64,000 nt of DNA from a virus (lineage: Duplodnaviria; Caudoviricetes). A program made the position numbers and the translations under genes. The notes beneath the pieces are model-generated. The model did not search any database. It had not been told where the DNA came from and saw nothing but the letters and a program-made list of their open reading frames with translations. Position 1 is the first letter of the stretch, and every line of letters begins with the position of its first letter. The DNA is taken from the IMG/VR virus record IMGVR_UViG_3300042294_003246. One strand, 5' to 3'. Of this stretch, positions 1,993 to 59,670 are shown piece after piece.

Positions 1993-4900
1993 ATGAAGAA
2001 TTTATTATTATCGATTTTTGTTTTTATTACAAGTTTTGTTTTTTCACAATCTTGCACACATACGATCAGACTGACTGATACATTTGGTGATGGTTGGAAT
2101 GGAGGTGCGGTTTCTGTATCGGTAAACGGAGTGACTGTATTGAGTAATATAACATTTACTTCAGGATTTGGCCCTGTCAATTTCAATTTTACGGCAGCAA
2201 CTGGTGCTACAATTAGAGTTTGGAGAACTTTAGCGGGAAGTTGGCCAAGTGAAATGAGGGTTCAAATAGTAAACAACACAGGAACAATTCTTTTAAATAC
2301 CATACAACCTGTTACGGGAACAGCAACGACGGGTGGTTATACATGTAATGCTATTTGTTTTATTGTAACTCCAGGTTGCACTAACGTTTCTTCATATGGG
2401 TCTGCAGTTGCTCCATCTACACCAACTACTGTTACAATTAGCTCTTGTAATTTTCAAAGTGAATACAGCACGGTTTCAGGTATTGTTGCTGGTCAAACAT
2501 ATCAATTTGGTTATAGTCTTGGAGGTTATATTACGGTTCATACAGGAACATATAACGGACCTATCGTTGCTTATGGAAATGCACCATTAAATTGGGCATC
2601 AAGTTATACTGGAACCGTTTATGTCCACTACAATACAAATTCAAGTTGTGGAACGACATCTTCATGTGGAACATCTACTGTGACTTGTGTTACTTGTTCC
2701 GCTCCAGCGGCCCCTGCAAATGATTTAGTTTGTAACGCAACACCAATTGTCTGTGGTCAGATGATATCAGGAACAACAGTAAATGCAACTAACAGTGGAA
2801 CGGGAGAAAATGGTATTTGTGGTATTTCACAAACAATGCCAGGTGTTTGGTATAGAGTTACAGGTAATGGTCAAATAATGACCGCTCATTTATGTAATAC
2901 TGCTTGGGATAGTAAAATATCTGTTTTTAGTGGAACTAGTTGTTCCGCATTAACTTGTGTAGGTGGGAATGATGATAACGGACCATTATGTGTTGGAACT
3001 TCAGCATCATATCAATGGACATCAGTTGTTGGACTTAACTATTATATTCTTGTTCATGGATATAGTTCATCAAGTGCATTTCAATTAGGATTAACATGTT
3101 CAACTCCACCACCACCAAACCCAACCTCAATTACAGCAACTTCAAATACAATATGTGTTGGTCAATCAACTACATTAACGGCAAACGGGGCAAGTGGAAC
3201 TGTATATTGGTTTACAGGAGGATGTGGTGTAGGTCAGATTGCAACAGGGAACTCAATAAGTGTAACCCCATCGACAACCACAACATATTACGCAAGAAAC
3301 TACAATGGAGTTCAGTTTAGTAACAATTGTGTGTCTACAACAGTAACGGTAAATAACAATCCGGTCGTATCAACTTCTGCAAGTTTAAGCACAATTTGTC
3401 AGGGTTCATCAACACAACTAAATTCATCTGTTACGGGAGTGTCATCTCCAGGTTCTCTTGCAGTTACAATAACAGGGGGATTATTAGATGAAACAAGTTG
3501 GACTCTAACAAATAATCTTGGAGTTATAATTGGTTCAGGAGGTCCTTATTTCACATCACCTAACGTCACAAATATTGCTTCTTCTGCTAATGGTCCTTAT
3601 GTTTTTTATATTGAAACTATGGGAAGCTGGAATGATAATGTCCCAACCTTTACTATAACTTGTAATGGGTCTACAATACTTTCAGGCTCAATTGGAGGGG
3701 GTTCACAAAATAACTATTGGGTATCAAGTTGCACAACAGCTCCGGTTGTAAATTATATTTGGTCACCATCAACAGGGTTGTCAAACCCAAATATACAAAA
3801 TCCGATAGCAAACCCATCAACTACAACAACCTATACTGTTACTGCAACTTCTAATGGTTGTAGTGGAACTTCAAGTAGAACAATAACCGTAAATCCATTA
3901 CCGAATGTAAGTGCAGGGTCTAATCAAACTGTTTGTTCAGGAACTCAAGTAACACTTAATGGTTCTGGAGCATCAACATACTCTTGGAATAACAGTGTGA
4001 CTAATGGAGTGGCTTTTACACCAACATCAACGCAAACTTATACGGTTACAGGCACAAACGCAAATGGATGTTCTAATACCTCAAGCACTACCGTCACTGT
4101 TCTATCCAATCCTTTGGCAAGCGCAGGAGGGTCTAATAATGGAACATCAACTTGTGGTATAAATCAAGTAACTTTGGGGGCTAACACACCACAAGCGGGT
4201 GAAACAGGAACATGGTCAGTTGTAAGTGGTGTTGGAGGAAGTTTTTCAAATATAAATTCACCCACATCTACGTTTATTGGAAACTATGGCTCAACATATA
4301 CTCTTCAATGGACTGTCTCAAACGGAAATTGTTCTACACCCAATAATATGTTAGTTACATTCAATCAACCAAATGCTTCGTCTTTAGGAGGTGCAATTGG
4401 AACAAACGACTTTTTATGGGGAGGGCTCACTTCTGTTGATTGGTCAACTTCAACAAACTGGTATCAAAAACAAGCTGCAGGACATTTCATTAGAATGTCA
4501 GGAGTTTCACTTCCAACAATAGCAAGTCAGGTTTTTACTTTGGACCAAGTAAATGGCGGAATTTGTATTGGAAACACAACACCAACTTTAAGTGTGAATG
4601 GAGATGCTTATGACGTTTTTATAAATTCAGGAATTACTCTTAATTTAACAAACGACAGTTTGAAAATATCACATGATATCGTAAATAATGGGACATTGAT
4701 CGCAAATACTGGAACTATAAATTTTGTTGGAAATCAAAACTCATCTTTCAATGGAAACGGAACATCACAATTATTTAACATGAAAGTTAATAAATCACAA
4801 GGGGCAACACTAACACTTGGTAACCATGTGAATGTTACTGGTAACTTAAATATGATTCAAGGAAATATTTTTACCTCAAACAACTCCTTATTAACACTAG

Positions 4901-6024
4901 GTTCAAGTAGTTCAAATATAGGTTCATTAACATATAATACAGGAACAATCGTTGGACCGTTCAAAAGATTTTTTAATAATTTATCAACAAACGGTAACGA
5001 GGGACTATTTCCCGTTGGAACTTCAAACTACAACAGATATGCAAGTTTTCAGTTCACAACTTCTCCTGGGGTGAATCAGTCTTTAACTGTTCAATATAAG
5101 AATGGAGCTCCAATTGTTAATGGCACACCTTTATATAATGGACTTCCATTTATGGCCTCAAACGCACTTATTCAAAATTATTCAATTGACGGATATTGGG
5201 AAGTTATACCGACATCAAATAACTATTCGTCTTCAATTTGTCAAACACCGTATAATCTAACTTTATTTGCAAATAACCTTAACGGAATGACAACTCCACA
5301 AATATGCAGAATTATTAAATCTCCTGGTTCAGTTCATACAAGTTGGCAACCATGCGGAAGTCATGTTGCAATACCTGCAAATGCTAATCCAATGGCATTT
5401 TTAATTACAAGCAATAATACACAAGGGTTTAGTTGGTTTAATATTGGGTCGTCTAATTCACAAATTCTTCCTGTTGAGTTATTATCATTTGATGGATCTT
5501 GTAATGATAATGTCATCACATTGGACTGGAAAACAGCAACTGAACATAATTCACATTATTTCGAAATACAAAAATCAAGGGATGGTGAAAATTGGTCTTC
5601 ACTAACAACTTTGGGATCTGCCGGTAACTCAACTCAAGAATTGTCATATACCACAAAAGATGAAAATGCAATCGACGGAAACAATTATTACAAATTAATT
5701 CAATATGATATTGACGGACAATTCAAAGAATATGGACCAATCAATGTGATTTGTAATGGAAACACAAAAGGATATTTTTCAATATTTCCAAATCCAAGTT
5801 CAGGAGATTTTCAAGTTATATTAAATAATAAAAAAATGATTGGTGAAGGACTATTTATAGTTAAGGATACTAAAGGGTCTGAAGTTTATAACCAAGACAT
5901 AAAAGTTTCAACCGGAATAAATTTGTATAATATTTCTGGTTTAAATTTAAGTCCGGGGGTTTATTATGTTAGCATAACTTCTAATGGAATAACTTCTGAA
6001 ACTATAAAACAAATAATAAAATGA
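1993..6024 (+). CDS. Large secreted Ig/PKD-repeat protein with T9SS type A C-terminal sorting domain
   Basis: Signal peptide MKNLLLSIFVFITSFVFSQ; Thr/Ser/Gly/Cys-rich Ig-like repeats; LPVELLSF Ig domain; C-terminal IFPNPSSG...GVYYV motif. ATG at 1993 preferred to TTG at 1984. Confidence 0.9.
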   Translation: MKNLLLSIFVFITSFVFSQSCTHTIRLTDTFGDGWNGGAVSVSVNGVTVLSNITFTSGFGPVNFNFTAATGATIRVWRTLAGSWPSEMRVQIVNNTGTILLNTIQPVTGTATTGGYTCNAICFIVTPGCTNVSSYGSAVAPSTPTTVTISSCNFQSEYSTVSGIVAGQTYQFGYSLGGYITVHTGTYNGPIVAYGNAPLNWASSYTGTVYVHYNTNSSCGTTSSCGTSTVTCVTCSAPAAPANDLVCNATPIVCGQMISGTTVNATNSGTGENGICGISQTMPGVWYRVTGNGQIMTAHLCNTAWDSKISVFSGTSCSALTCVGGNDDNGPLCVGTSASYQWTSVVGLNYYILVHGYSSSSAFQLGLTCSTPPPPNPTSITATSNTICVGQSTTLTANGASGTVYWFTGGCGVGQIATGNSISVTPSTTTTYYARNYNGVQFSNNCVSTTVTVNNNPVVSTSASLSTICQGSSTQLNSSVTGVSSPGSLAVTITGGLLDETSWTLTNNLGVIIGSGGPYFTSPNVTNIASSANGPYVFYIETMGSWNDNVPTFTITCNGSTILSGSIGGGSQNNYWVSSCTTAPVVNYIWSPSTGLSNPNIQNPIANPSTTTTYTVTATSNGCSGTSSRTITVNPLPNVSAGSNQTVCSGTQVTLNGSGASTYSWNNSVTNGVAFTPTSTQTYTVTGTNANGCSNTSSTTVTVLSNPLASAGGSNNGTSTCGINQVTLGANTPQAGETGTWSVVSGVGGSFSNINSPTSTFIGNYGSTYTLQWTVSNGNCSTPNNMLVTFNQPNASSLGGAIGTNDFLWGGLTSVDWSTSTNWYQKQAAGHFIRMSGVSLPTIASQVFTLDQVNGGICIGNTTPTLSVNGDAYDVFINSGITLNLTNDSLKISHDIVNNGTLIANTGTINFVGNQNSSFNGNGTSQLFNMKVNKSQGATLTLGNHVNVTGNLNMIQGNIFTSNNSLLTLGSSSSNIGSLTYNTGTIVGPFKRFFNNLSTNGNEGLFPVGTSNYNRYASFQFTTSPGVNQSLTVQYKNGAPIVNGTPLYNGLPFMASNALIQNYSIDGYWEVIPTSNNYSSSICQTPYNLTLFANNLNGMTTPQICRIIKSPGSVHTSWQPCGSHVAIPANANPMAFLITSNNTQGFSWFNIGSSNSQILPVELLSFDGSCNDNVITLDWKTATEHNSHYFEIQKSRDGENWSSLTTLGSAGNSTQELSYTTKDENAIDGNNYYKLIQYDIDGQFKEYGPINVICNGNTKGYFSIFPNPSSGDFQVILNNKKMIGEGLFIVKDTKGSEVYNQDIKVSTGINLYNISGLNLSPGVYYVSITSNGITSETIKQIIK

Positions 6025-7017: not shown

Positions 7018-7397
7018 CTATAGAAGAAATGAATGATTACCTTGAGTCAATTGGAGGACTTGAGAATGGTATGTATTCGAACAAACCAAAAATAACCAGT
7101 TGTGATTTTTTTGATGTTCAGGTTGGTTGGTATCCATTAATTAAAAATTTGATTGATGAACTCATAACATTGGGTTGGGATAAACAAGTGATACAAGTAA
7201 AAGAAAAATTTGGAGGATTGAGATTCTACATTAATGGTGGGTCCGATGAAATATATAACAAAATTACCGAAGCGGAAAAGTTAAGTTATGAAATATGTGA
7301 ACTTTGCGGTAAAAAAGGAGAATTAAGGACAAAAATACGTTGGTTTACAACTTTATGTGATGAACATTATGAAAAAAAACATACACCACTTATTTAA
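7014..7397 (+). CDS. Conserved phage hypothetical (QVKEKFGGLRFY, CxxC)
   Basis: ORF; paralogue of 19323. Confidence 0.75.
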   Translation: MTIEEMNDYLESIGGLENGMYSNKPKITSCDFFDVQVGWYPLIKNLIDELITLGWDKQVIQVKEKFGGLRFYINGGSDEIYNKITEAEKLSYEICELCGKKGELRTKIRWFTTLCDEHYEKKHTPLI

Positions 7398-7683
7398 AAC
7401 AAATCCATCACTTTTAGATAATGTTGAAGTTCAAGAACTAATTGAATATTGTCGGGAACTTGAAGGTGTAATACTTGAAAGAAAAATTGAAGACGAATAC
7501 AACAAAGAACAACACTATAAACAAGTCTTCAAAGAAATATACCAAAGTTGTTGTGAAACTCTAAAAGATGATGAGTTGTCAGAAAGATTTAAGGAAACAC
7601 CAAAAGTTGATTTCAAAGAAACAATATTCAATTTGAAAAATTATATGCTCGAAATGTGTAGATTATATAAATTAGATTTGTAA
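7357..7683 (+). CDS. Hypothetical protein
   Basis: ORF; paralogue of 19645; likely start 7369. Confidence 0.7.
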   Translation: MMNIMKKNIHHLFKTNPSLLDNVEVQELIEYCRELEGVILERKIEDEYNKEQHYKQVFKEIYQSCCETLKDDELSERFKETPKVDFKETIFNLKNYMLEMCRLYKLDL

Positions 7684-9979: not shown

Positions 9980-10531
9980 ATGATTAACCCAACAGGAAAA
10001 AAATTAGAGAAACTTTTATTTGGAATGTTTGACGACGCCATACAAGGTGTTGATACATATAACCATAATGGTAGTATGTGGTTGATCTTTACTGATGAAA
10101 TGAAATGGGTTGTGGAATACACTAAAGAACAAACACTATGGTATAATTACTATTTCTTCAAAAACGAAATGGAAATGATAAACTTGGATTGTGTTGATAA
10201 TAAAGACCTTATTCAAAAATGGTTTGAGTCAAGATTTTTGAATAAGAATGAGGTTAAAGAAACTGACAAATCTAATTCCAATTATCGTTTGTGTGTTAAA
10301 GACACCATTCAAAATGGTGTAAAAAACACCTGCTGGAATCGTGGAAGCAAAAACACCCGAGTTAAAGACACCATTCAAAATGGGGTAAAAAACACCCGTG
10401 GATATGTAAAACAGATTGATTCGTTGGTTAAAGACACCATTCAAAATGGGGTAAAAAACACCCAAGCCCCTTACCATTCGTTATATGAGTTAGTTAAAGA
10501 CACCATTCAAAATGGGGTGAAAGAAAAATAG
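9980..10531 (+). CDS. Hypothetical protein, conserved ~105-aa N-domain plus 22-aa VKDTIQNGVKNT repeat units
   Basis: Paralogue of 21016 and 21707. Confidence 0.8.
   Translation: MINPTGKKLEKLLFGMFDDAIQGVDTYNHNGSMWLIFTDEMKWVVEYTKEQTLWYNYYFFKNEMEMINLDCVDNKDLIQKWFESRFLNKNEVKETDKSNSNYRLCVKDTIQNGVKNTCWNRGSKNTRVKDTIQNGVKNTRGYVKQIDSLVKDTIQNGVKNTQAPYHSLYELVKDTIQNGVKEK
10295..10528. CRISPR. CRISPR-like array in frame inside ORF 9980: 4 repeats (36 nt), 3 spacers (30 nt)
   Basis: GTTAAAGACACCATTCAAAATGGGGTAAAAAACACC at 10295, 10361, 10427, 10493 (last degenerate); spacers unique, exactly 30 nt. Confidence 0.7.
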
Positions 10532-17423: not shown

Positions 17424-17870
17424 ATGAAAATAATAATAACAGAAAGTCAGTATAATCTTTTATTTGAAAATAAAAAAAATCAATCTTTAATTGATATTAT
17501 TAAAGAAGAAGGTTGGGAATCTGCCGCTGAATTAGTTGGAGGTATTGAGAATCTTAAAAAATTGACAGGAATTGAAACTCCTATAGATTTTTTAAATATT
17601 TTTACTGATTTGGATGTTGTTCAGAGTGAAGAAGAACCTAATTGGACTTTATTTAGGTATGAAAAAAAAAATAATGTAATGATTTACGATAGAAAAAATA
17701 ACAATGTTTATATATATTATGATGTTATTTGGCCATTTTTAGAAGAAGGTTTTGATCTTAAAAACTCTGAAATACAACAACTTACAGAAGAGTGGTTGTC
17801 TGAGGCTTACAATTTGAGGGGAGTAACAACTTATCCATCTATAATGGGTCGGCACTCATTAGTTGTCTGA
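17424..17870 (+). CDS. MKIIITE-leader hypothetical protein ending in a CRISPR-like unit
   Basis: Paralogue of 47879. Confidence 0.75.
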   Translation: MKIIITESQYNLLFENKKNQSLIDIIKEEGWESAAELVGGIENLKKLTGIETPIDFLNIFTDLDVVQSEEEPNWTLFRYEKKNNVMIYDRKNNNVYIYYDVIWPFLEEGFDLKNSEIQQLTEEWLSEAYNLRGVTTYPSIMGRHSLVV

Positions 17871-17880
17871 GGCTTACAAT
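17795..17880. CRISPR. Mini-array: 36-nt type VI-B-like repeat, 31-nt spacer, 19-nt partial repeat
   Basis: GTTGTCTGAGGCTTACAATTTGAGGGGAGTAACAAC (17795-17830); exact copy of first 19 nt at 17862-17880. Confidence 0.65.
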
Positions 17881-20696: not shown

Positions 20697-21014
20697 ATGG
20701 AAAAAGTTATTATTGAAAAAGATAAATTACGCAAATGTGTGATCTTGGAAAAAGATGGTGAATATGTATTTCGTTCAGGACATGGAGAGTTCCACGAAGA
20801 TGTTGCAAATAGATCCAAAGAACTTGAACCAGAATTAAAGGATTGGAGAATTCTTGGTGGTGGAAGAGTTAGATGGTCTGATCTTGGAATTAGAGTATAT
20901 GGACGATCAATTGATTATGGTTATATGGATAAAGAGATCGTGGAAGAACTTGTTTCAGAGTTCGCAAAAGAAAATGGTGTTGAATTTACTAACGATACAG
21001 GAATAGGATATTAA
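20697..21014 (+). CDS. Janus/Ocnus family (PHPT1-like phosphohistidine phosphatase) protein
   Basis: EFHEDV, ILGGGRV, IRVYGRSIDYG match the PHPT1 pattern EYHADI / LGGGRI / IHVYGYSMAYG as recalled. Confidence 0.65.
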   Translation: MEKVIIEKDKLRKCVILEKDGEYVFRSGHGEFHEDVANRSKELEPELKDWRILGGGRVRWSDLGIRVYGRSIDYGYMDKEIVEELVSEFAKENGVEFTNDTGIGY

Positions 21015-21015
21015 A

Positions 21016-21585
21016 ATGAAAAATCCATCAGGAAAAAAATTAGATAAGATTTTGTTCAAACTATTTGACCAAATGATTGAAGGTGTTGACCAATACAATC
21101 ATAGTGGTAGTTTATGGATCATCTTTACCAATGAACGACAATGGGTTGTTGAATATACCGAAGGAGGAACTCTATGGTATAACTACAAACTATTCAAAAA
21201 TGAAATGGAATTGGTTGGTATGGATTGCGTTGAAAATAAAGAATACATAACCAGATGGTTTGAATATAGATTTTTGAATAAACCAAAGGTTGATAAAACT
21301 TGGGACAATCCGGTAGATGTGTGGTATCAAATTGAAGACACCATTCAAAATGGGGTGAAGAACACCAAGGTTAGGTCCGCATTGCGCAGGATATCAGTTG
21401 AAGATACCATTCAAAATGGGGTGAAACACACCGGCGGAAAATTGGCTTCGCTGGCCGACCTGGTTGAAGACACCATTCAAAACGGGGTAAAGGAGACCCA
21501 AGAGTGGCGTTTGGATGCGACTCATTATATTATAGACACAATTGAAAATGGAGTGAAACAAACAAAACGAAGTTATGATGGTTAA
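21016..21585 (+). CDS. Paralogue of 9980 with in-frame repeat-spacer units
   Basis: MKNPSGKKL N-domain plus xEDTIQNGVK units. Confidence 0.8.
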   Translation: MKNPSGKKLDKILFKLFDQMIEGVDQYNHSGSLWIIFTNERQWVVEYTEGGTLWYNYKLFKNEMELVGMDCVENKEYITRWFEYRFLNKPKVDKTWDNPVDVWYQIEDTIQNGVKNTKVRSALRRISVEDTIQNGVKHTGGKLASLADLVEDTIQNGVKETQEWRLDATHYIIDTIENGVKQTKRSYDG

Positions 21586-21702
21586 AGAAAACAGAGAACG
21601 AAATATGTCGTTGAAAATGGGGTGAAACACACTACAGGAACATCAACTGACTTACGATATAAAAGGGTTGAATATACCATTCAAAACGGAGAAAAAATTA
21701 AA
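21331..21702. CRISPR. CRISPR-like array: repeats at 21331, 21397, 21463, 21529 and degenerate 21598, 21667
   Basis: 36-nt repeats; spacers 30,30,30,33,33 nt; first three spacers 47-63% GC; array continues past the ORF stop. Confidence 0.7.
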
Positions 21703-21706
21703 TAAA

Positions 21707-22897
21707 ATGAATAATCCATCAGGAAAAAAATTAGAGAAACTTGTCTTTGGGTTGTTTGACCAAATGATTGAAGGTGCAGACAAGTATATTACAGAACAAG
21801 GTTCAACTTGGTTGATCTTTACCGAAGACAAAAGATGGGTGGTTGAATTCACAAAAGATAAAACTTTGTGGTTCAACTATAACCTATTTCAAAATGAGTT
21901 AGATCTAGTCAGTAAGGACTGCACTCAAGAAAGAGATTTGATCAAGAACTGGTTTGAATCAAGATTTTTGGGTATTGATGTGGTTGAGGAAAGTTTAAGC
22001 ACTGCTGGAAAACCATTGAAGGTTAAAGATACCATTCAAAATGGGGTGAAACACACTTGGGATTTAAATGCGGATGAAATTTCTGCAGTTAAAGACACCA
22101 TTCAAAATGGGGTAAGACACACCGATTATTTTGAATATACTAATAATACCTTAGTTGAAGATACCATTCAAGAGGGGGTGAAAGAAACCAATTACAAAAT
22201 TGGTTACCGAAAAGGTGGTATTGAAATCGCAATTCAAAATGGTGTAAAAGAAACACGAACATTCAATTCACCACCAATTAAATACATTGAAGACACCATT
22301 CAAAATGGGGTGAAAGAAACAACACCTAGTGGTTATTTGGGTTCAATGGAGATGAAAGGGAAAATAGTTCATCAAATTGAATCTCCAAAACAAAATAATG
22401 AGGTTGAAGACACCATTCAAAATGGGGTAAGACACACCGAAGTAGATGGGATGAGGATAAGGAGTGGGGTTAAGGACGCCATTCAAAATGGAGTAAAGGA
22501 CACTGTGTTAGCAAAAACGGATAGATTAGTCGGTATTGAAGACACCATTCAAAGTGGTATTAAAGACGTATCTGATAGACCATTCACATTTGGATCAAGT
22601 ATTGATGATGCCATTGAAAATGGTGTTAAAGAAACTAGAGAGGTAACATTCTTGAACCAAATGTTTATTGAAGAAACAATTGAAAAAGTTACACCAGATG
22701 GTGGAGTTGAAATTCCTTCTGATATGAAAGTTGGAACTGGATTGATGAATATGGTAAAAGAATTACGTGATAATGAATGGAGAACATTTGAACATCACGA
22801 TAATTGGATTAAAAACGAACATTATCCAAATCCAACATTTGAACAACAATTTGATACAGGTAATGCTTATAAAGAAATGTTAAAAACTAAAATTTAA
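21707..22897 (+). CDS. Paralogue of 9980 with ~10 repeat units and unrelated C-terminal tail
   Basis: Start placed at ATG 21707 (MNNPSGKK) by paralogy. Confidence 0.8.
   Translation: MNNPSGKKLEKLVFGLFDQMIEGADKYITEQGSTWLIFTEDKRWVVEFTKDKTLWFNYNLFQNELDLVSKDCTQERDLIKNWFESRFLGIDVVEESLSTAGKPLKVKDTIQNGVKHTWDLNADEISAVKDTIQNGVRHTDYFEYTNNTLVEDTIQEGVKETNYKIGYRKGGIEIAIQNGVKETRTFNSPPIKYIEDTIQNGVKETTPSGYLGSMEMKGKIVHQIESPKQNNEVEDTIQNGVRHTEVDGMRIRSGVKDAIQNGVKDTVLAKTDRLVGIEDTIQSGIKDVSDRPFTFGSSIDDAIENGVKETREVTFLNQMFIEETIEKVTPDGGVEIPSDMKVGTGLMNMVKELRDNEWRTFEHHDNWIKNEHYPNPTFEQQFDTGNAYKEMLKTKI
22022..22702. CRISPR. CRISPR-like array: repeats at 22022, 22088, 22154, 22220, 22286, 22403, 22469, 22535, 22601, 22667
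   Basis: Eight 30-nt spacers and one 81-nt; repeats degenerate toward the right. Confidence 0.65.
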
Positions 22898-25642: not shown

Positions 25643-25828
25643 ATGAAAGAAATAGAATTGTTAATCAGAAGAGAAAATGCTTTATCTAAGCAAAATTTGT
25701 TATACCAATTATTAGGTAAATTTGGTGATGATTTACCTAAACAGATACAAGATGCTGTAAGATTGATGGCAGAAGAAGAAGGTAGAGAGTATAACAAATT
25801 AGGTACTAAGGTTGCGGAACGGTTGTAG
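25643..25828 (+). CDS. Cassette 6 ORF (hypothetical)
   Basis: ORF fills cassette. Confidence 0.65.
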   Translation: MKEIELLIRRENALSKQNLLYQLLGKFGDDLPKQIQDAVRLMAEEEGREYNKLGTKVAERL

Positions 25829-25841
25829 TAAATTTTATTAC

Positions 25842-25924
25842 CGCTAACGTTTTGCGGCTTTGTGTCAGGCTGCGAAGCGTTGGCATTGAGCGGTCGGGCA
25901 GCTTGCACAAAACCGCTGTTATAC
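25842..25924 (+). other. attC site 7
   Basis: CGCTAAC...TTTGTGTCAGGCTGC / GCAGCTTGCACAAA...GTTATAC. Confidence 0.85.
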
Positions 25925-47496: not shown

Positions 47497-47879
47497 AAAT
47501 AATAATTTCAGAACGACAACAAAAGTTATTAACCGAGTCAAAAAAACTTGAGTCGGCACAAAATCTTATTGATCAGGCATTTGAGGAATTAAGAGAAAAC
47601 TGTGAAAAAAATTGGGTTGAACAATATGCTTGTGATCAAATGGAAACCGTTGAAGAGATTAAAGTTGTTGCATCTGAAAAAGGATCAGCGACCACAAGAG
47701 GTCAAAAAACTAATTTTTGGTTGATTGAAGTTGACATATATTATTCATCATTAGGATATACACCTTTTGAAGATTTTATTTATCAAATCCAATGGGAAGT
47801 TAGAGAAATTGTCGGATCAAGAAATATTATTATAACCATCCGAGGTACTATAAACTCAAACAAAGACCTAAACTGGTAA
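47493..47879 (+). CDS. MKIIISE-leader hypothetical protein
   Basis: ORF. Confidence 0.7.
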   Translation: MKIIISERQQKLLTESKKLESAQNLIDQAFEELRENCEKNWVEQYACDQMETVEEIKVVASEKGSATTRGQKTNFWLIEVDIYYSSLGYTPFEDFIYQIQWEVREIVGSRNIIITIRGTINSNKDLNW

Positions 47880-48322
47880 TGAAAATAATAATATCAGAAT
47901 CACAATATAATTTACTTTTAGAATCAAAGTTGAAACAAAATCTTAAACAGGAAATTAAAGATTTTGGAGTAAAAGATACTGCTGAACTTGTTAATGGTTT
48001 CGATAATTTAATGGAAATTTTAAACATAAATTCTCCGATGGATTTTTTACATTTGTTTGATGACTTGGATGTTGTTCAAAGTGAAATGGACCCTGATTGG
48101 ACTTTATTTCGATATAAACCAAAACATAATTTGATGGTTCACAATAGAAAAAATAGAACTGTTTTCATTAATTACGAAGAAATTTGGAAACCTTTATTTG
48201 ATACTGGTCTTTTCGATCCTGACATAAAGGAACTTACAAAAGAGTGGTTGTCTAGTGTCTACAACTTAAGGGGAGTCACAACCGAAAGGTTTTATCAAGC
48301 TTCTCCATGGTTAGTTGTCTAG
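47879..48322 (+). CDS. MKIIISE-leader protein, paralogue of 17424, ending in a CRISPR-like unit
   Basis: Shared FLHLF.DLDVVQSE..WTLFRY...WLS..YNLRGVTT. Confidence 0.75.
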   Translation: MKIIISESQYNLLLESKLKQNLKQEIKDFGVKDTAELVNGFDNLMEILNINSPMDFLHLFDDLDVVQSEMDPDWTLFRYKPKHNLMVHNRKNRTVFINYEEIWKPLFDTGLFDPDIKELTKEWLSSVYNLRGVTTERFYQASPWLVV

Positions 48323-58608: not shown

Positions 58609-59670
58609 ATGTGTATGAAACTAATATCTTTTATAGTATCTATATTTCTATTTTTCATTAGTTTATCACAAACTCAAACCGTAACTTTTAATTATACAGG
58701 TGCTGTTCAAACATGGGTTGTTCCACCTTGTGTTACTTCTATCAATGTAGTCGCCGCAGGAGCAAAAGGTGGAGGTGCTATTGGAGGAAACGGAGCAAGA
58801 ATAACCGCAACAATAGCCGTAACACCAGGTCAAACTCTGAATATATATGTTGGTGGAATGGGGACATGTGGAAATAATTCAGGAGGATGGAATGGTGGAG
58901 GAACAGGATATGCTTCTAACCCTGCGAATGTAACATATAATTCTTGTGGTGGTGGAGGTGCAACTGATATTAGAATTGGAGGAACCGCACTTGCAAATAG
59001 AGTAATTGTTGCAGGAGCGGGTGGTGGTAAAGGTGGAGGATCAAACACAAATACACCTGGTGGTGGAGCCTTATGTAATAACGGAGCAAACGGAGGAAAT
59101 ACCTTTGGTGCTGGCGGTGGAGGAGGAACACAAGTTGCAGGAGGAAATGGTGGTGCTCCTTGGGCAGGAACACCTCCTGGTGGTCAAGCAGGAACATTAG
59201 GTCAAGGTGGAAATGGTGGATTTTGGCAAACGGCATCAGGTGGCGGTGGCGGTGGCGGTCGTTATGGCGGTGGCGGTGGAGGAAATGATGGATGTTGCAC
59301 TGGTGCTAACGGTGGAGGTGGTGGCGGTGGAGGATCTTCACTTGTCCCTGTTGGAGGAACTTGTTTACCCACAAACAACACAGGACACGGATATTTAACA
59401 ATCACTTACACACCCGTTAATTTGGTGGTTAACCCAACCTCAACAAATGTCACATGTTTTGGATTATGTGATGGAACCGCAAACTCAAATGTAACAACAC
59501 CAGGGGCCACTTTTCTTTGGTCACCGGGAGGACAAACAACCCCTTCAATATCAAATCTTTGTCCTGGCACATATACCGTAACGGTAAATATAAGTGGTTG
59601 CACAGCAACAGGATCTGTAACTATAACCCAACCTAATCAAATATTGTTAGGTCCAATAAACCATAATTAA
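58609..59670 (+). CDS. Secreted glycine-rich-domain protein with SprB-like repeat
   Basis: Signal peptide; GGGGATDIR...RVIVAGAGGG; NVTCFGLCDG; ends PINHN. Confidence 0.8.
   Translation: MCMKLISFIVSIFLFFISLSQTQTVTFNYTGAVQTWVVPPCVTSINVVAAGAKGGGAIGGNGARITATIAVTPGQTLNIYVGGMGTCGNNSGGWNGGGTGYASNPANVTYNSCGGGGATDIRIGGTALANRVIVAGAGGGKGGGSNTNTPGGGALCNNGANGGNTFGAGGGGGTQVAGGNGGAPWAGTPPGGQAGTLGQGGNGGFWQTASGGGGGGGRYGGGGGGNDGCCTGANGGGGGGGGSSLVPVGGTCLPTNNTGHGYLTITYTPVNLVVNPTSTNVTCFGLCDGTANSNVTTPGATFLWSPGGQTTPSISNLCPGTYTVTVNISGCTATGSVTITQPNQILLGPINHN

Follow-up and report, generated by a model that had tools for sequence, protein, structure and literature searches.

Is an array of short repeats inside a phage gene a repeat of the protein, a store of captured DNA of the CRISPR type, or both? 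The question is raised by a stretch of 64,000 nucleotides (nt) from a virus of the Caudoviricetes (IMG/VR record IMGVR_UViG_3300042294_003246), here called the window, whose gene g2 contains six 36-nt cores with unique inserts of 30 or 33 nt between them (array 2, positions 21331-21702). Our best explanation, to which we give a probability of roughly 70%, is that array 2 is the translated repeat half of a phage gene, that its inserts are 30-nt pieces of host DNA which were later shuffled, and that the TAA codon now interrupting it is a later mutation.

The window is phage DNA with a G+C (GC) content of 31% and nearly all genes on one strand; the phage was seen in lake runs spanning 2016 to 2024. 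In its current reading, taken from the open reading frame (ORF) and its translation, g2 (21016-21585, plus strand) encodes 189 amino acids (aa), comprising a conserved N-terminal domain and the array up to a premature TAA. Core 1 (IEDTIQNGVKNT, 21331-21366) starts 315 nt after the ATG and is followed, all on the plus strand, by insert 1 (KVRSALRRIS, 21367-21396, 30 nt, 50% GC), core 2 (VEDTIQNGVKHT, 21397-21432), insert 2 (GGKLASLADL, 21433-21462, 30 nt, 63% GC), core 3 (VEDTIQNGVKET, 21463-21498), insert 3 (QEWRLDATHY, 21499-21528, 30 nt, 47% GC) and core 4 (IIDTIENGVKQT, 21529-21564). Insert 4 (21565-21597, 33 nt) is an old cassette, KRSYDG*RKQR, that contains the TAA at 21583-21585. Behind it, in an untranslated C-terminal remnant (21598-21702), lie degenerate core 5 (21598-21633), insert 5 (TGTSTDLRYKR, 21634-21666, 33 nt) and the terminal degenerate core 6 (VEYTIQNGEKIK, 21667-21702). 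The translations also show a partial core of four codons (VDKT) and a 10-residue insert-like segment (WDNPVDVWYQ) before the first full core (21289-21330, plus strand), a layout common to the other two paralogues; the related locus L005 has a full degenerate core there. The region 21331-21530 reaches 47.5% GC, which places it in the top 0.6% among 200-nt segments, and the three inserts within it use codons that are rare in the phage (CTG, 1%, twice; CGC, 1%; GGC, 4%; TCG, 5%). An earlier note, made from the sequence alone, had described the positions of cores and inserts, the three GC values, the in-frame TAA in insert 4 and the two further degenerate units, and had noted, for each of the three paralogues (ATGs at 9980, 21016 and 21707), an offset of 315 nt between the ATG and the first full core; all of this is confirmed here.

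The array is under strict coding constraint. Cores were located at the DNA level, blind to reading frame, in the window and in 82 related loci, and the core-to-core period was a multiple of 3 in 319 of 319 unique adjacent pairs (66 nt in 261, 57-198 nt in the others). An in-frame stop codon was found in none of 208 distinct 30-nt inserts, versus 39-53% in the other sense frames. Together, these two results indicate that the array is translated. Variation in the core shows a clear three-base periodicity that preserves the amino acid; Gly8 was invariant across 389 distinct units despite the use of four glycine codons, and Val9 behaved alike. Selection acts at the protein level, and the array is a protein repeat too. 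Long antisense ORFs also cross the arrays (21394-21630 in the window and 7334-7618 in the related locus L004, both on the minus strand) and translate as H-P-I-L-N-G-V-F-N repeats; they are probably a by-product of the near-palindrome that the core forms at the codon level.

The DNA between the cores is of bacterial origin. Insert 2 matched at 30 of 30 positions, on the sense strand and in the same frame, a SIS-domain (GmhA/DiaA-like) gene of G001, an incomplete 2.7-Mb Bacteroidota metagenome-assembled genome (MAG). This was the sole exact 30-nt match in the 185,579 species genomes searched, against a chance expectation of ~1e-6 by our own calculation. The G001 stretch around the match is 43% GC (G001 loci average ~40%) and has no other similarity to the window. 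Insert 1 matched a CapA-like gene of G001 in antisense at 28 of 30 positions, the match stopping exactly at both core edges. A scan with the host flanks found the CapA-like site in three bacterial metagenome contigs, one of which agrees with insert 1 at 29 of 30 positions, so the mismatches to G001 reflect host polymorphisms. In L004, matches to G001 were found for the first insert of the g2 orthologue (28/30, 532-aa ORF, sense, in frame), the first insert of the g3 orthologue (28/30, 621-aa ORF, sense, in frame) and the sixth insert of the latter (30/30, rpoB, sense, out of frame), and the first insert of L005 matched a Fe/Mn superoxide dismutase (SOD)-like gene of G001 (27-28/30, sense, in frame). 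All six matches end no more than 1 nt from the core edges. As a control, 60 kb of the window was compared with G001, which gave only long gene homologies of 63-74% and no other short near-exact match. Among the 151 genomes of the G001 family, the two window matches were found only in G001, and the best match to the rpoB insert was also in G001. For insert 3 we found no donor, and a 24-mer from it had no exact match in the species genomes; its peptide is conserved in L001-L004. Phage and plasmid records gave no significant match to the array.

Two phage genes of the window (3800-5900 and 58682-59402), a 1,343-aa ORF with immunoglobulin (Ig)-like CHU_C-associated repeats and a glycine-rich ALK_LTK_GRD-like ORF (E = 1e-98), are 63-74% identical in DNA to genes of G001, and this similarity is independent support for a host in the lineage of G001. 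Between 23565 and 29184 the window gave only weak matches to G001 (25823-25865, E about 0.01). Three of the six protospacers have the motif TAAA on the phage sense strand, no more than 7 nt upstream (0-3 nt at host loci L084, L097 and L096), against a background of 3.6% (raw p = 8e-4, the motif having been picked after seeing the data). As a protospacer-adjacent motif (PAM), TAAA was set aside, the cases being too few to be called a motif, and it differs in both strand and spacing from the TAAA PAM of II-C/VI-B acquisition in Flavobacterium columnare.

As a class, the inserts are host-like rather than phage-like in composition. The 34 distinct 30-nt inserts of the phage group have 42.9% GC and a mean host-versus-phage Markov log-odds of 1.09; the corresponding values are 41.1% and 1.09 for stop-free 30-mers of the host and 32.4% and -0.71 for 30-mers of the phage (p = 1.4e-8). 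Family-wide, inserts average 38% GC versus 32% for their loci. The earlier note had held that the inserts come from foreign DNA and had named Bacteroidota, plasmids and phages as places to look for protospacers. Foreign origin is borne out by this composition and by two of the three high-GC inserts, which are near-exact 30-nt copies of DNA in a Bacteroidota MAG; the search succeeded for Bacteroidota, with donor genes in G001, and failed for phage and plasmid records.

The arrays are also polar, and their units are shuffled. Five of the six matched inserts stand first in some array, a position held by 8 of the 56 distinct inserts (hypergeometric p = 8e-5). Arrays of related strains have their 3′ parts in common and differ by 5′ additions, internal losses and one fresh duplication; gain, loss and duplication of units were all seen between the window and L001-L005. 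The duplicated unit (insert DYFEYTNNTL plus core) stands twice in tandem at 7175-7306 of L003, a fresh duplication by unequal crossing-over. Insert 2 is missing in L003, where the part of the flanking core that was compared looks like a hybrid of window cores 2 and 3; this would mean a loss by recombination between cores. Moreover, the first seven core codons are conserved at synonymous sites family-wide, through codons that are rare in the N-terminal domains of the same genes (ACC for Thr, 78% vs 32%; CAC for His, 86% vs 21%), and codon identity between cores is 0.72 at any gene divergence, compared with 0.54-0.58 for the N-terminal domains of distant pairs. This conservation points to homogenisation between cores, a DNA-level signal, or both. 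The earlier proposal that the array is not only a protein repeat stands as far as it concerns filling at the DNA level, with exact boundaries and polarity, but the array is a protein repeat as well.

We propose that 30-nt pieces of a bacterial, probably host, chromosome are placed exactly between two 36-nt cores, rather than that the variable segments evolved in place. Pieces would be captured from either strand and in any frame, and added mostly at the end proximal to the N-terminal domain; selection would keep only those inserts that leave the frame open, and recombination between cores would later delete, duplicate and shuffle whole units among paralogues and related phages. The coding constraint, the host origin, the exact boundaries, the polarity and the shuffling are shown by the data above; the further step, by inference, is that insertion is performed by a length-measuring integrase, as in CRISPR spacer acquisition. 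By analogy, exact junctions, a fixed length of 30 nt, capture from either strand and in any frame, and polarity are the hallmarks of CRISPR spacer integration, and we know of no other process that yields them. Candidate integrases would be the Cas1-Cas2 of a type II-C system, which in the host family also has 30-nt spacers, or an unrecognised phage enzyme. Cas1 was found in 45 of the 151 genomes of the host family, and among the arrays sampled there a type II-C-like one has 30-nt spacers and a 47-nt repeat, and a Cas12a-like one a 36-nt repeat and shorter spacers. In F. columnare, the II-C Cas1 loads a separate VI-B array with a 36-nt repeat in trans, with many host spacers (PMC8092290); on this precedent, an integrase of the host that works in trans is a reasonable candidate, though unproven.

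Several observations weigh against this proposal. A donor was identified for only 6 of 56 distinct inserts, and host matches come only from the group formed by the window and L001-L006. The distant relative L012 gave no insert-host match in the 151 family genomes, in a scan of low sensitivity that scored two candidates per genome, and its one match lies at an ordinary gene junction. G001 is itself a MAG, and we only infer its closeness to the host. Profiles of Cas1, Cas2, Cas12f/TnpB-type proteins and reverse transcriptases (RTs) found nothing in G001 or in three related jumbo phages that are 93-100% complete. The core is identical to the repeats of five host-family CRISPR arrays at no more than 17 of 36 positions, a core 24-mer is absent from the 185,579 species genomes, and the core appears to fit the definition of a VI-B repeat only partly, and better on the opposite strand. 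Across the family there is no GC trend along arrays, which we looked for as a sign of amelioration. Finally, between the two cores that flank a matched insert 2-7 of 36 positions differ, which leaves no visible trace of a simple duplication of the repeat at each insertion.

Two other origins for the repeat and its variation find no support. A degenerate pattern of the reverse-complement core, modelled on a Flavobacterium repeat, gave only 9 single matches, in line with chance; with the absent 24-mer and the low identity to host arrays, this gives no support to the idea that the core mimics a CRISPR repeat of the host. A diversity-generating retroelement was rejected because RVT_1 had no match in G001 or in six related phage records, no template repeat was found, and the variation consists of whole 30-nt replacements.

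The array might instead be a working CRISPR-type guide array, perhaps VI-B-like on the opposite strand, whose RNAs would guide an effector, of the host or the phage, to host genes such as rpoB, gmhA and the SOD-like gene; the open frame would then be secondary, serving for example transcription-translation coupling. The 36 + 30 nt geometry, host-derived spacers and polarity would all be expected of such an array, and, with five of six matched inserts on the host sense strand, an antisense transcript would pair with host mRNAs. However, this 5:1 bias is not significant once stop-free inserts have been selected. VI-B repeats are 36 nt long, with complementary 5′-GUUG/CAAC-3′ ends, a poly-U open loop and 30-nt spacers (Smargon et al., 10.1101/092577). 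The core reads GUUG...CACC with a poly-A run in the sense direction and GGUG...UUUU...CAAC in reverse complement, so that the latter, with its GGUG 5′ end, central U-run and CAAC 3′ end, is a partial fit. Yet, compared with shuffled sequence, folding of the core is no better on either strand (z = -1.3 and -1.05), a small hairpin in the core shows no compensatory covariation, and Rfam gave no CRISPR-DR or other match. The synonymous conservation of the first seven core codons would suit a guide function, as would the precedent of huge phages with arrays that lack cas1/cas2 and are directed against host transcription and translation genes (PMC7162821). On the other hand, core variation keeps the amino acid, and every period, including those of 57-72 and 117-198 nt, is a multiple of 3. 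Neither the ten largest ORFs of the window nor G001 nor three related phages yielded an effector gene; those ten ORFs include no cas genes of any kind, and no sampled host repeat resembles the core. We therefore regard a guide array as unlikely.

We are similarly doubtful of a dual-coded system, in which an integrase (the host's II-C Cas1-Cas2 in trans, or an unrecognised enzyme of the phage) would write host 30-mers into the gene, each becoming both a 10-residue loop of a β-hairpin repeat protein and a guide-like transcript unit. The opposite strand would be VI-B-like and give RNAs antisense to the rpoB, SOD-like and gmhA mRNAs, and the array would be a heritable, updatable record of the host that serves its takeover or the jamming of its Cas13b.

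Integration might also be a neutral by-product, a spacer integrase of the host using phage cores off-target and a modular protein tolerating the inserts that are in frame and free of stops. The Cas1 genes and the type II-C-like arrays with 30-nt spacers in the host family would supply such an integrase. Spacers are known to integrate ectopically within an array (PMC7999890), and the II-C Cas1 of F. columnare that loads a VI-B array in trans stores many self spacers (PMC8092290). However, nearly all inserts of the group are host-like and the family has ~2,000 array-bearing members, which speaks for a maintained process over accidents; the conserved synonymous sites in the 5′ half of the core suggest selection for a DNA-level signal; and no Cas1 was found in G001, an incomplete MAG. 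Taken together, these points leave a by-product improbable.

An ordinary tandem repeat of a protein, shaped by mutation and unequal crossing-over, with the 36 + 30 geometry a coincidence and the array a "false CRISPR", would account for the strict coding constraint and for cassettes that are common to phages as peptides and are shuffled. It would also agree with the lack of an Rfam CRISPR-DR match and of cas genes, and false CRISPRs are known to include tandem repeats that lie within genes (PMC5294841). It does not account for six inserts that match scattered genes of one bacterial genome at 27-30 of 30 positions, one of them in antisense, with boundaries at the core edges, and it leaves unexplained both the host-like composition of all 34 inserts and the 5′ clustering of those matched, which makes it very improbable. 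A plain shuffled-cassette protein with the GC-rich inserts as a chance tail was dropped on the exact host match of insert 2.

The TAA at 21583-21585 is real. It is carried by contigs identical to the window across 21402-21742 in four independent lake runs, and proteins of three other assemblies (P0123, P0124 and P0137) terminate at that same residue, which speaks against an assembly error. Behind it the frame is open until a second TAA at 21703-21705, which abuts the ATG of the next paralogue; such a TAAAATG gene junction occurs twice, at 21012 and 21703. The orthologues in L003 and L004 are 229 aa long, exactly the read-through length, with the two tail units in frame. The stop-bearing insert is an old 11-residue cassette, K-(R/E)-(S/N)-Y-D-G-S-R-K-Q-R, intact in L005, L006, L044, P0121 and P0082; the site of the TAA is TCA in the three loci and Ser in the two proteins. 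Relatives with TCA or Ser and orthologues of 229 aa point to truncation of the gene by a single C>A change (TCA>TAA). Judged by these comparisons, the TAA is a later nonsense mutation that left a protein of 189 instead of 229 residues, and the 117 nt downstream are a remnant of the 229-codon gene, two former units that are now untranslated DNA. The earlier note had taken the continuation of the array past the stop as a sign that it is not only a protein repeat, and had allowed for the TAA being a sequencing error; the first argument fails on the TCA of relatives and on a tail that is the remnant of a gene, the second on the end shared by four runs and three other assemblies. Short contigs of runs X11-X14 that differ at 5-11 further places have C and not A at 21584 (TCA); these are other family members with the same cassette in the same lakes, not g2. 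That the TAA is read through or recoded, the full 229-residue protein still being made, is hardly tenable: 39 codons are open behind it and the tail is identical in three assemblies, but such a run has a ~5% chance even in random AT-rich sequence (our own calculation), the identical tail reflects just recent common ancestry, TAA is the commonest stop in the window (56 of 94 ORFs), relatives have an ordinary TCA codon at the site, and no tRNA, hence no suppressor tRNA, lies within the window.

The window has two paralogues of g2, both on the plus strand: g1 (9980-10531, 183 aa), with four cores and three 30-nt inserts, and g3 (21707-22897, 396 aa), with about 11 cores, the 3′ part of its array being common to relatives and the 5′ end variable. 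All three consist of a conserved N-terminal domain of ~91-100 residues followed by 66-nt units, each a 36-nt core encoding V-E-D-T-I-Q-N-G-V-K-x-T plus a unique insert of ~30 nt, that is, 22 residues (12 of the core and ~10 variable). A homologue search put the size of the family at ~1,900-2,000 metagenome proteins from lake and other metagenomes, and IMG/VR contigs carrying it are up to 304 kb long. Pfam, PHROGs and Atlas contain no family for the protein, the sole match being a sub-threshold dodecin-like helix. AlphaFold2 models the N-terminal domain with moderate confidence (predicted local distance difference test, pLDDT, 60-86) and the units as low-confidence β-hairpins that turn at N-G; in these models the 12-residue core is probably a β-hairpin turning at N-G. 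Fold searches found nothing over background (best Z 5.1), and a profile search of PDB sequences found nothing convincing. Phage-type genes elsewhere in the window encode an RNA ligase, an AAA ATPase, a thymidylate synthase, a Y-family polymerase and a ferredoxin.

The closest known systems each share only part of these features. Like CRISPR arrays in general, the arrays have 36-nt cores, 30-nt inserts and a 66-nt period in 261 of 319 cases; the six inserts copied from foreign DNA at 27-30 of 30 positions, bounded by core edges, and the polarity, with matched inserts first and 3′ ends common to strains, agree too. The strict coding constraint does not, CRISPR arrays being non-coding. Huge phages have arrays without cas1/cas2, often without effectors, and with some spacers against host genes (Al-Shayeb et al. 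2020, PMC7162821). Our case, too, is a large phage from a lake, with short repeats and unique spacers in compact arrays, without a Cas1, Cas2 or RT match in three near-complete related jumbo phages, and with spacers that match the probable host chromosome, including a transcription gene (rpoB here, sigma-70 there). It differs in that the array lies inside an ORF, is strictly open, in frame and translated, its repeat is unlike the sampled host repeats, and no effector was found.

With the VI-B (Cas13b) arrays it shares the 36-nt repeat, 30-nt spacers, occurrence in Bacteroidota, many self spacers, the lack of an own Cas1, and a core whose reverse complement has a CAAC 3′ end and a central U-run; unlike them it has GGUG rather than GUUG at the 5′ end, no predicted stable terminal stem, no cas13b found, and a coding array. 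The window also contains a second 36-nt repeat, with GTTG...CAAC ends, at 17795-17880 (ORFs 17424-17870 and 47879-48322), which encodes the conserved C-terminus W-L-S-E/S-A/V-Y-N-L-R-G-V-T-T of another paralogous family and, by its ends, looks more VI-B-like than the array core. At 17831-17880 there is a 31-nt insert with a partial second copy of this repeat, and the shifted frame makes a stop. Small unrelated ORFs starting at 17424, 47493, 47879 and 48348 have a common leader, M-K-I-I-I-(S/T)-E-(S/R)-Q.

Virus-borne mini-CRISPR arrays (PMC6858448) and RNA anti-CRISPRs (PMC10651486) are likewise repeat-type elements on viruses without cas genes of their own, but they are non-coding and copy the host's own repeat, and mini-array spacers are directed against rival viruses; the array here is coding, its repeat is unlike the host repeats sampled and its spacers come from the host chromosome. 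As in tandem-repeat or cassette surface proteins (PMC5294841), conserved blocks are recombination sites, units are gained, lost and swapped, and all are translated; unlike in those, the variable parts come from unrelated host genes and not from a gene family, and have a fixed length and exact junctions. Spacer diversity is lacking in false CRISPRs within genes (PMC5294841), whereas the inserts here, although in frame and translated, are mutually unrelated and host-derived, which places the array outside that class. In full-text literature searches, nothing was found that describes arrays which are translated and carry host DNA, and the locus appears to be one instance of an undescribed system.

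For annotation this carries a practical warning, as CRISPR finders would call such loci arrays and gene callers would call them repeat proteins, each half right. A family of ~2,000 proteins, found on contigs of up to 304 kb, is more than the oddity of a single genome. If our reading is true, the capture of DNA as spacers, which is known only from the memory step in CRISPR immunity, would also build protein sequence: host genes would supply pieces of fixed length that turn into peptide loops in a protein of the phage, and survival would be limited to inserts that keep the frame open. As a route to protein diversity this would be new, and separate from both cassette recombination and diversity-generating retroelements, and it would raise the testable question of which enzyme does the writing. 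The inserts would, moreover, record at the molecular level which host an uncultured jumbo phage has, and here they point to a freshwater lineage of Bacteroidota.

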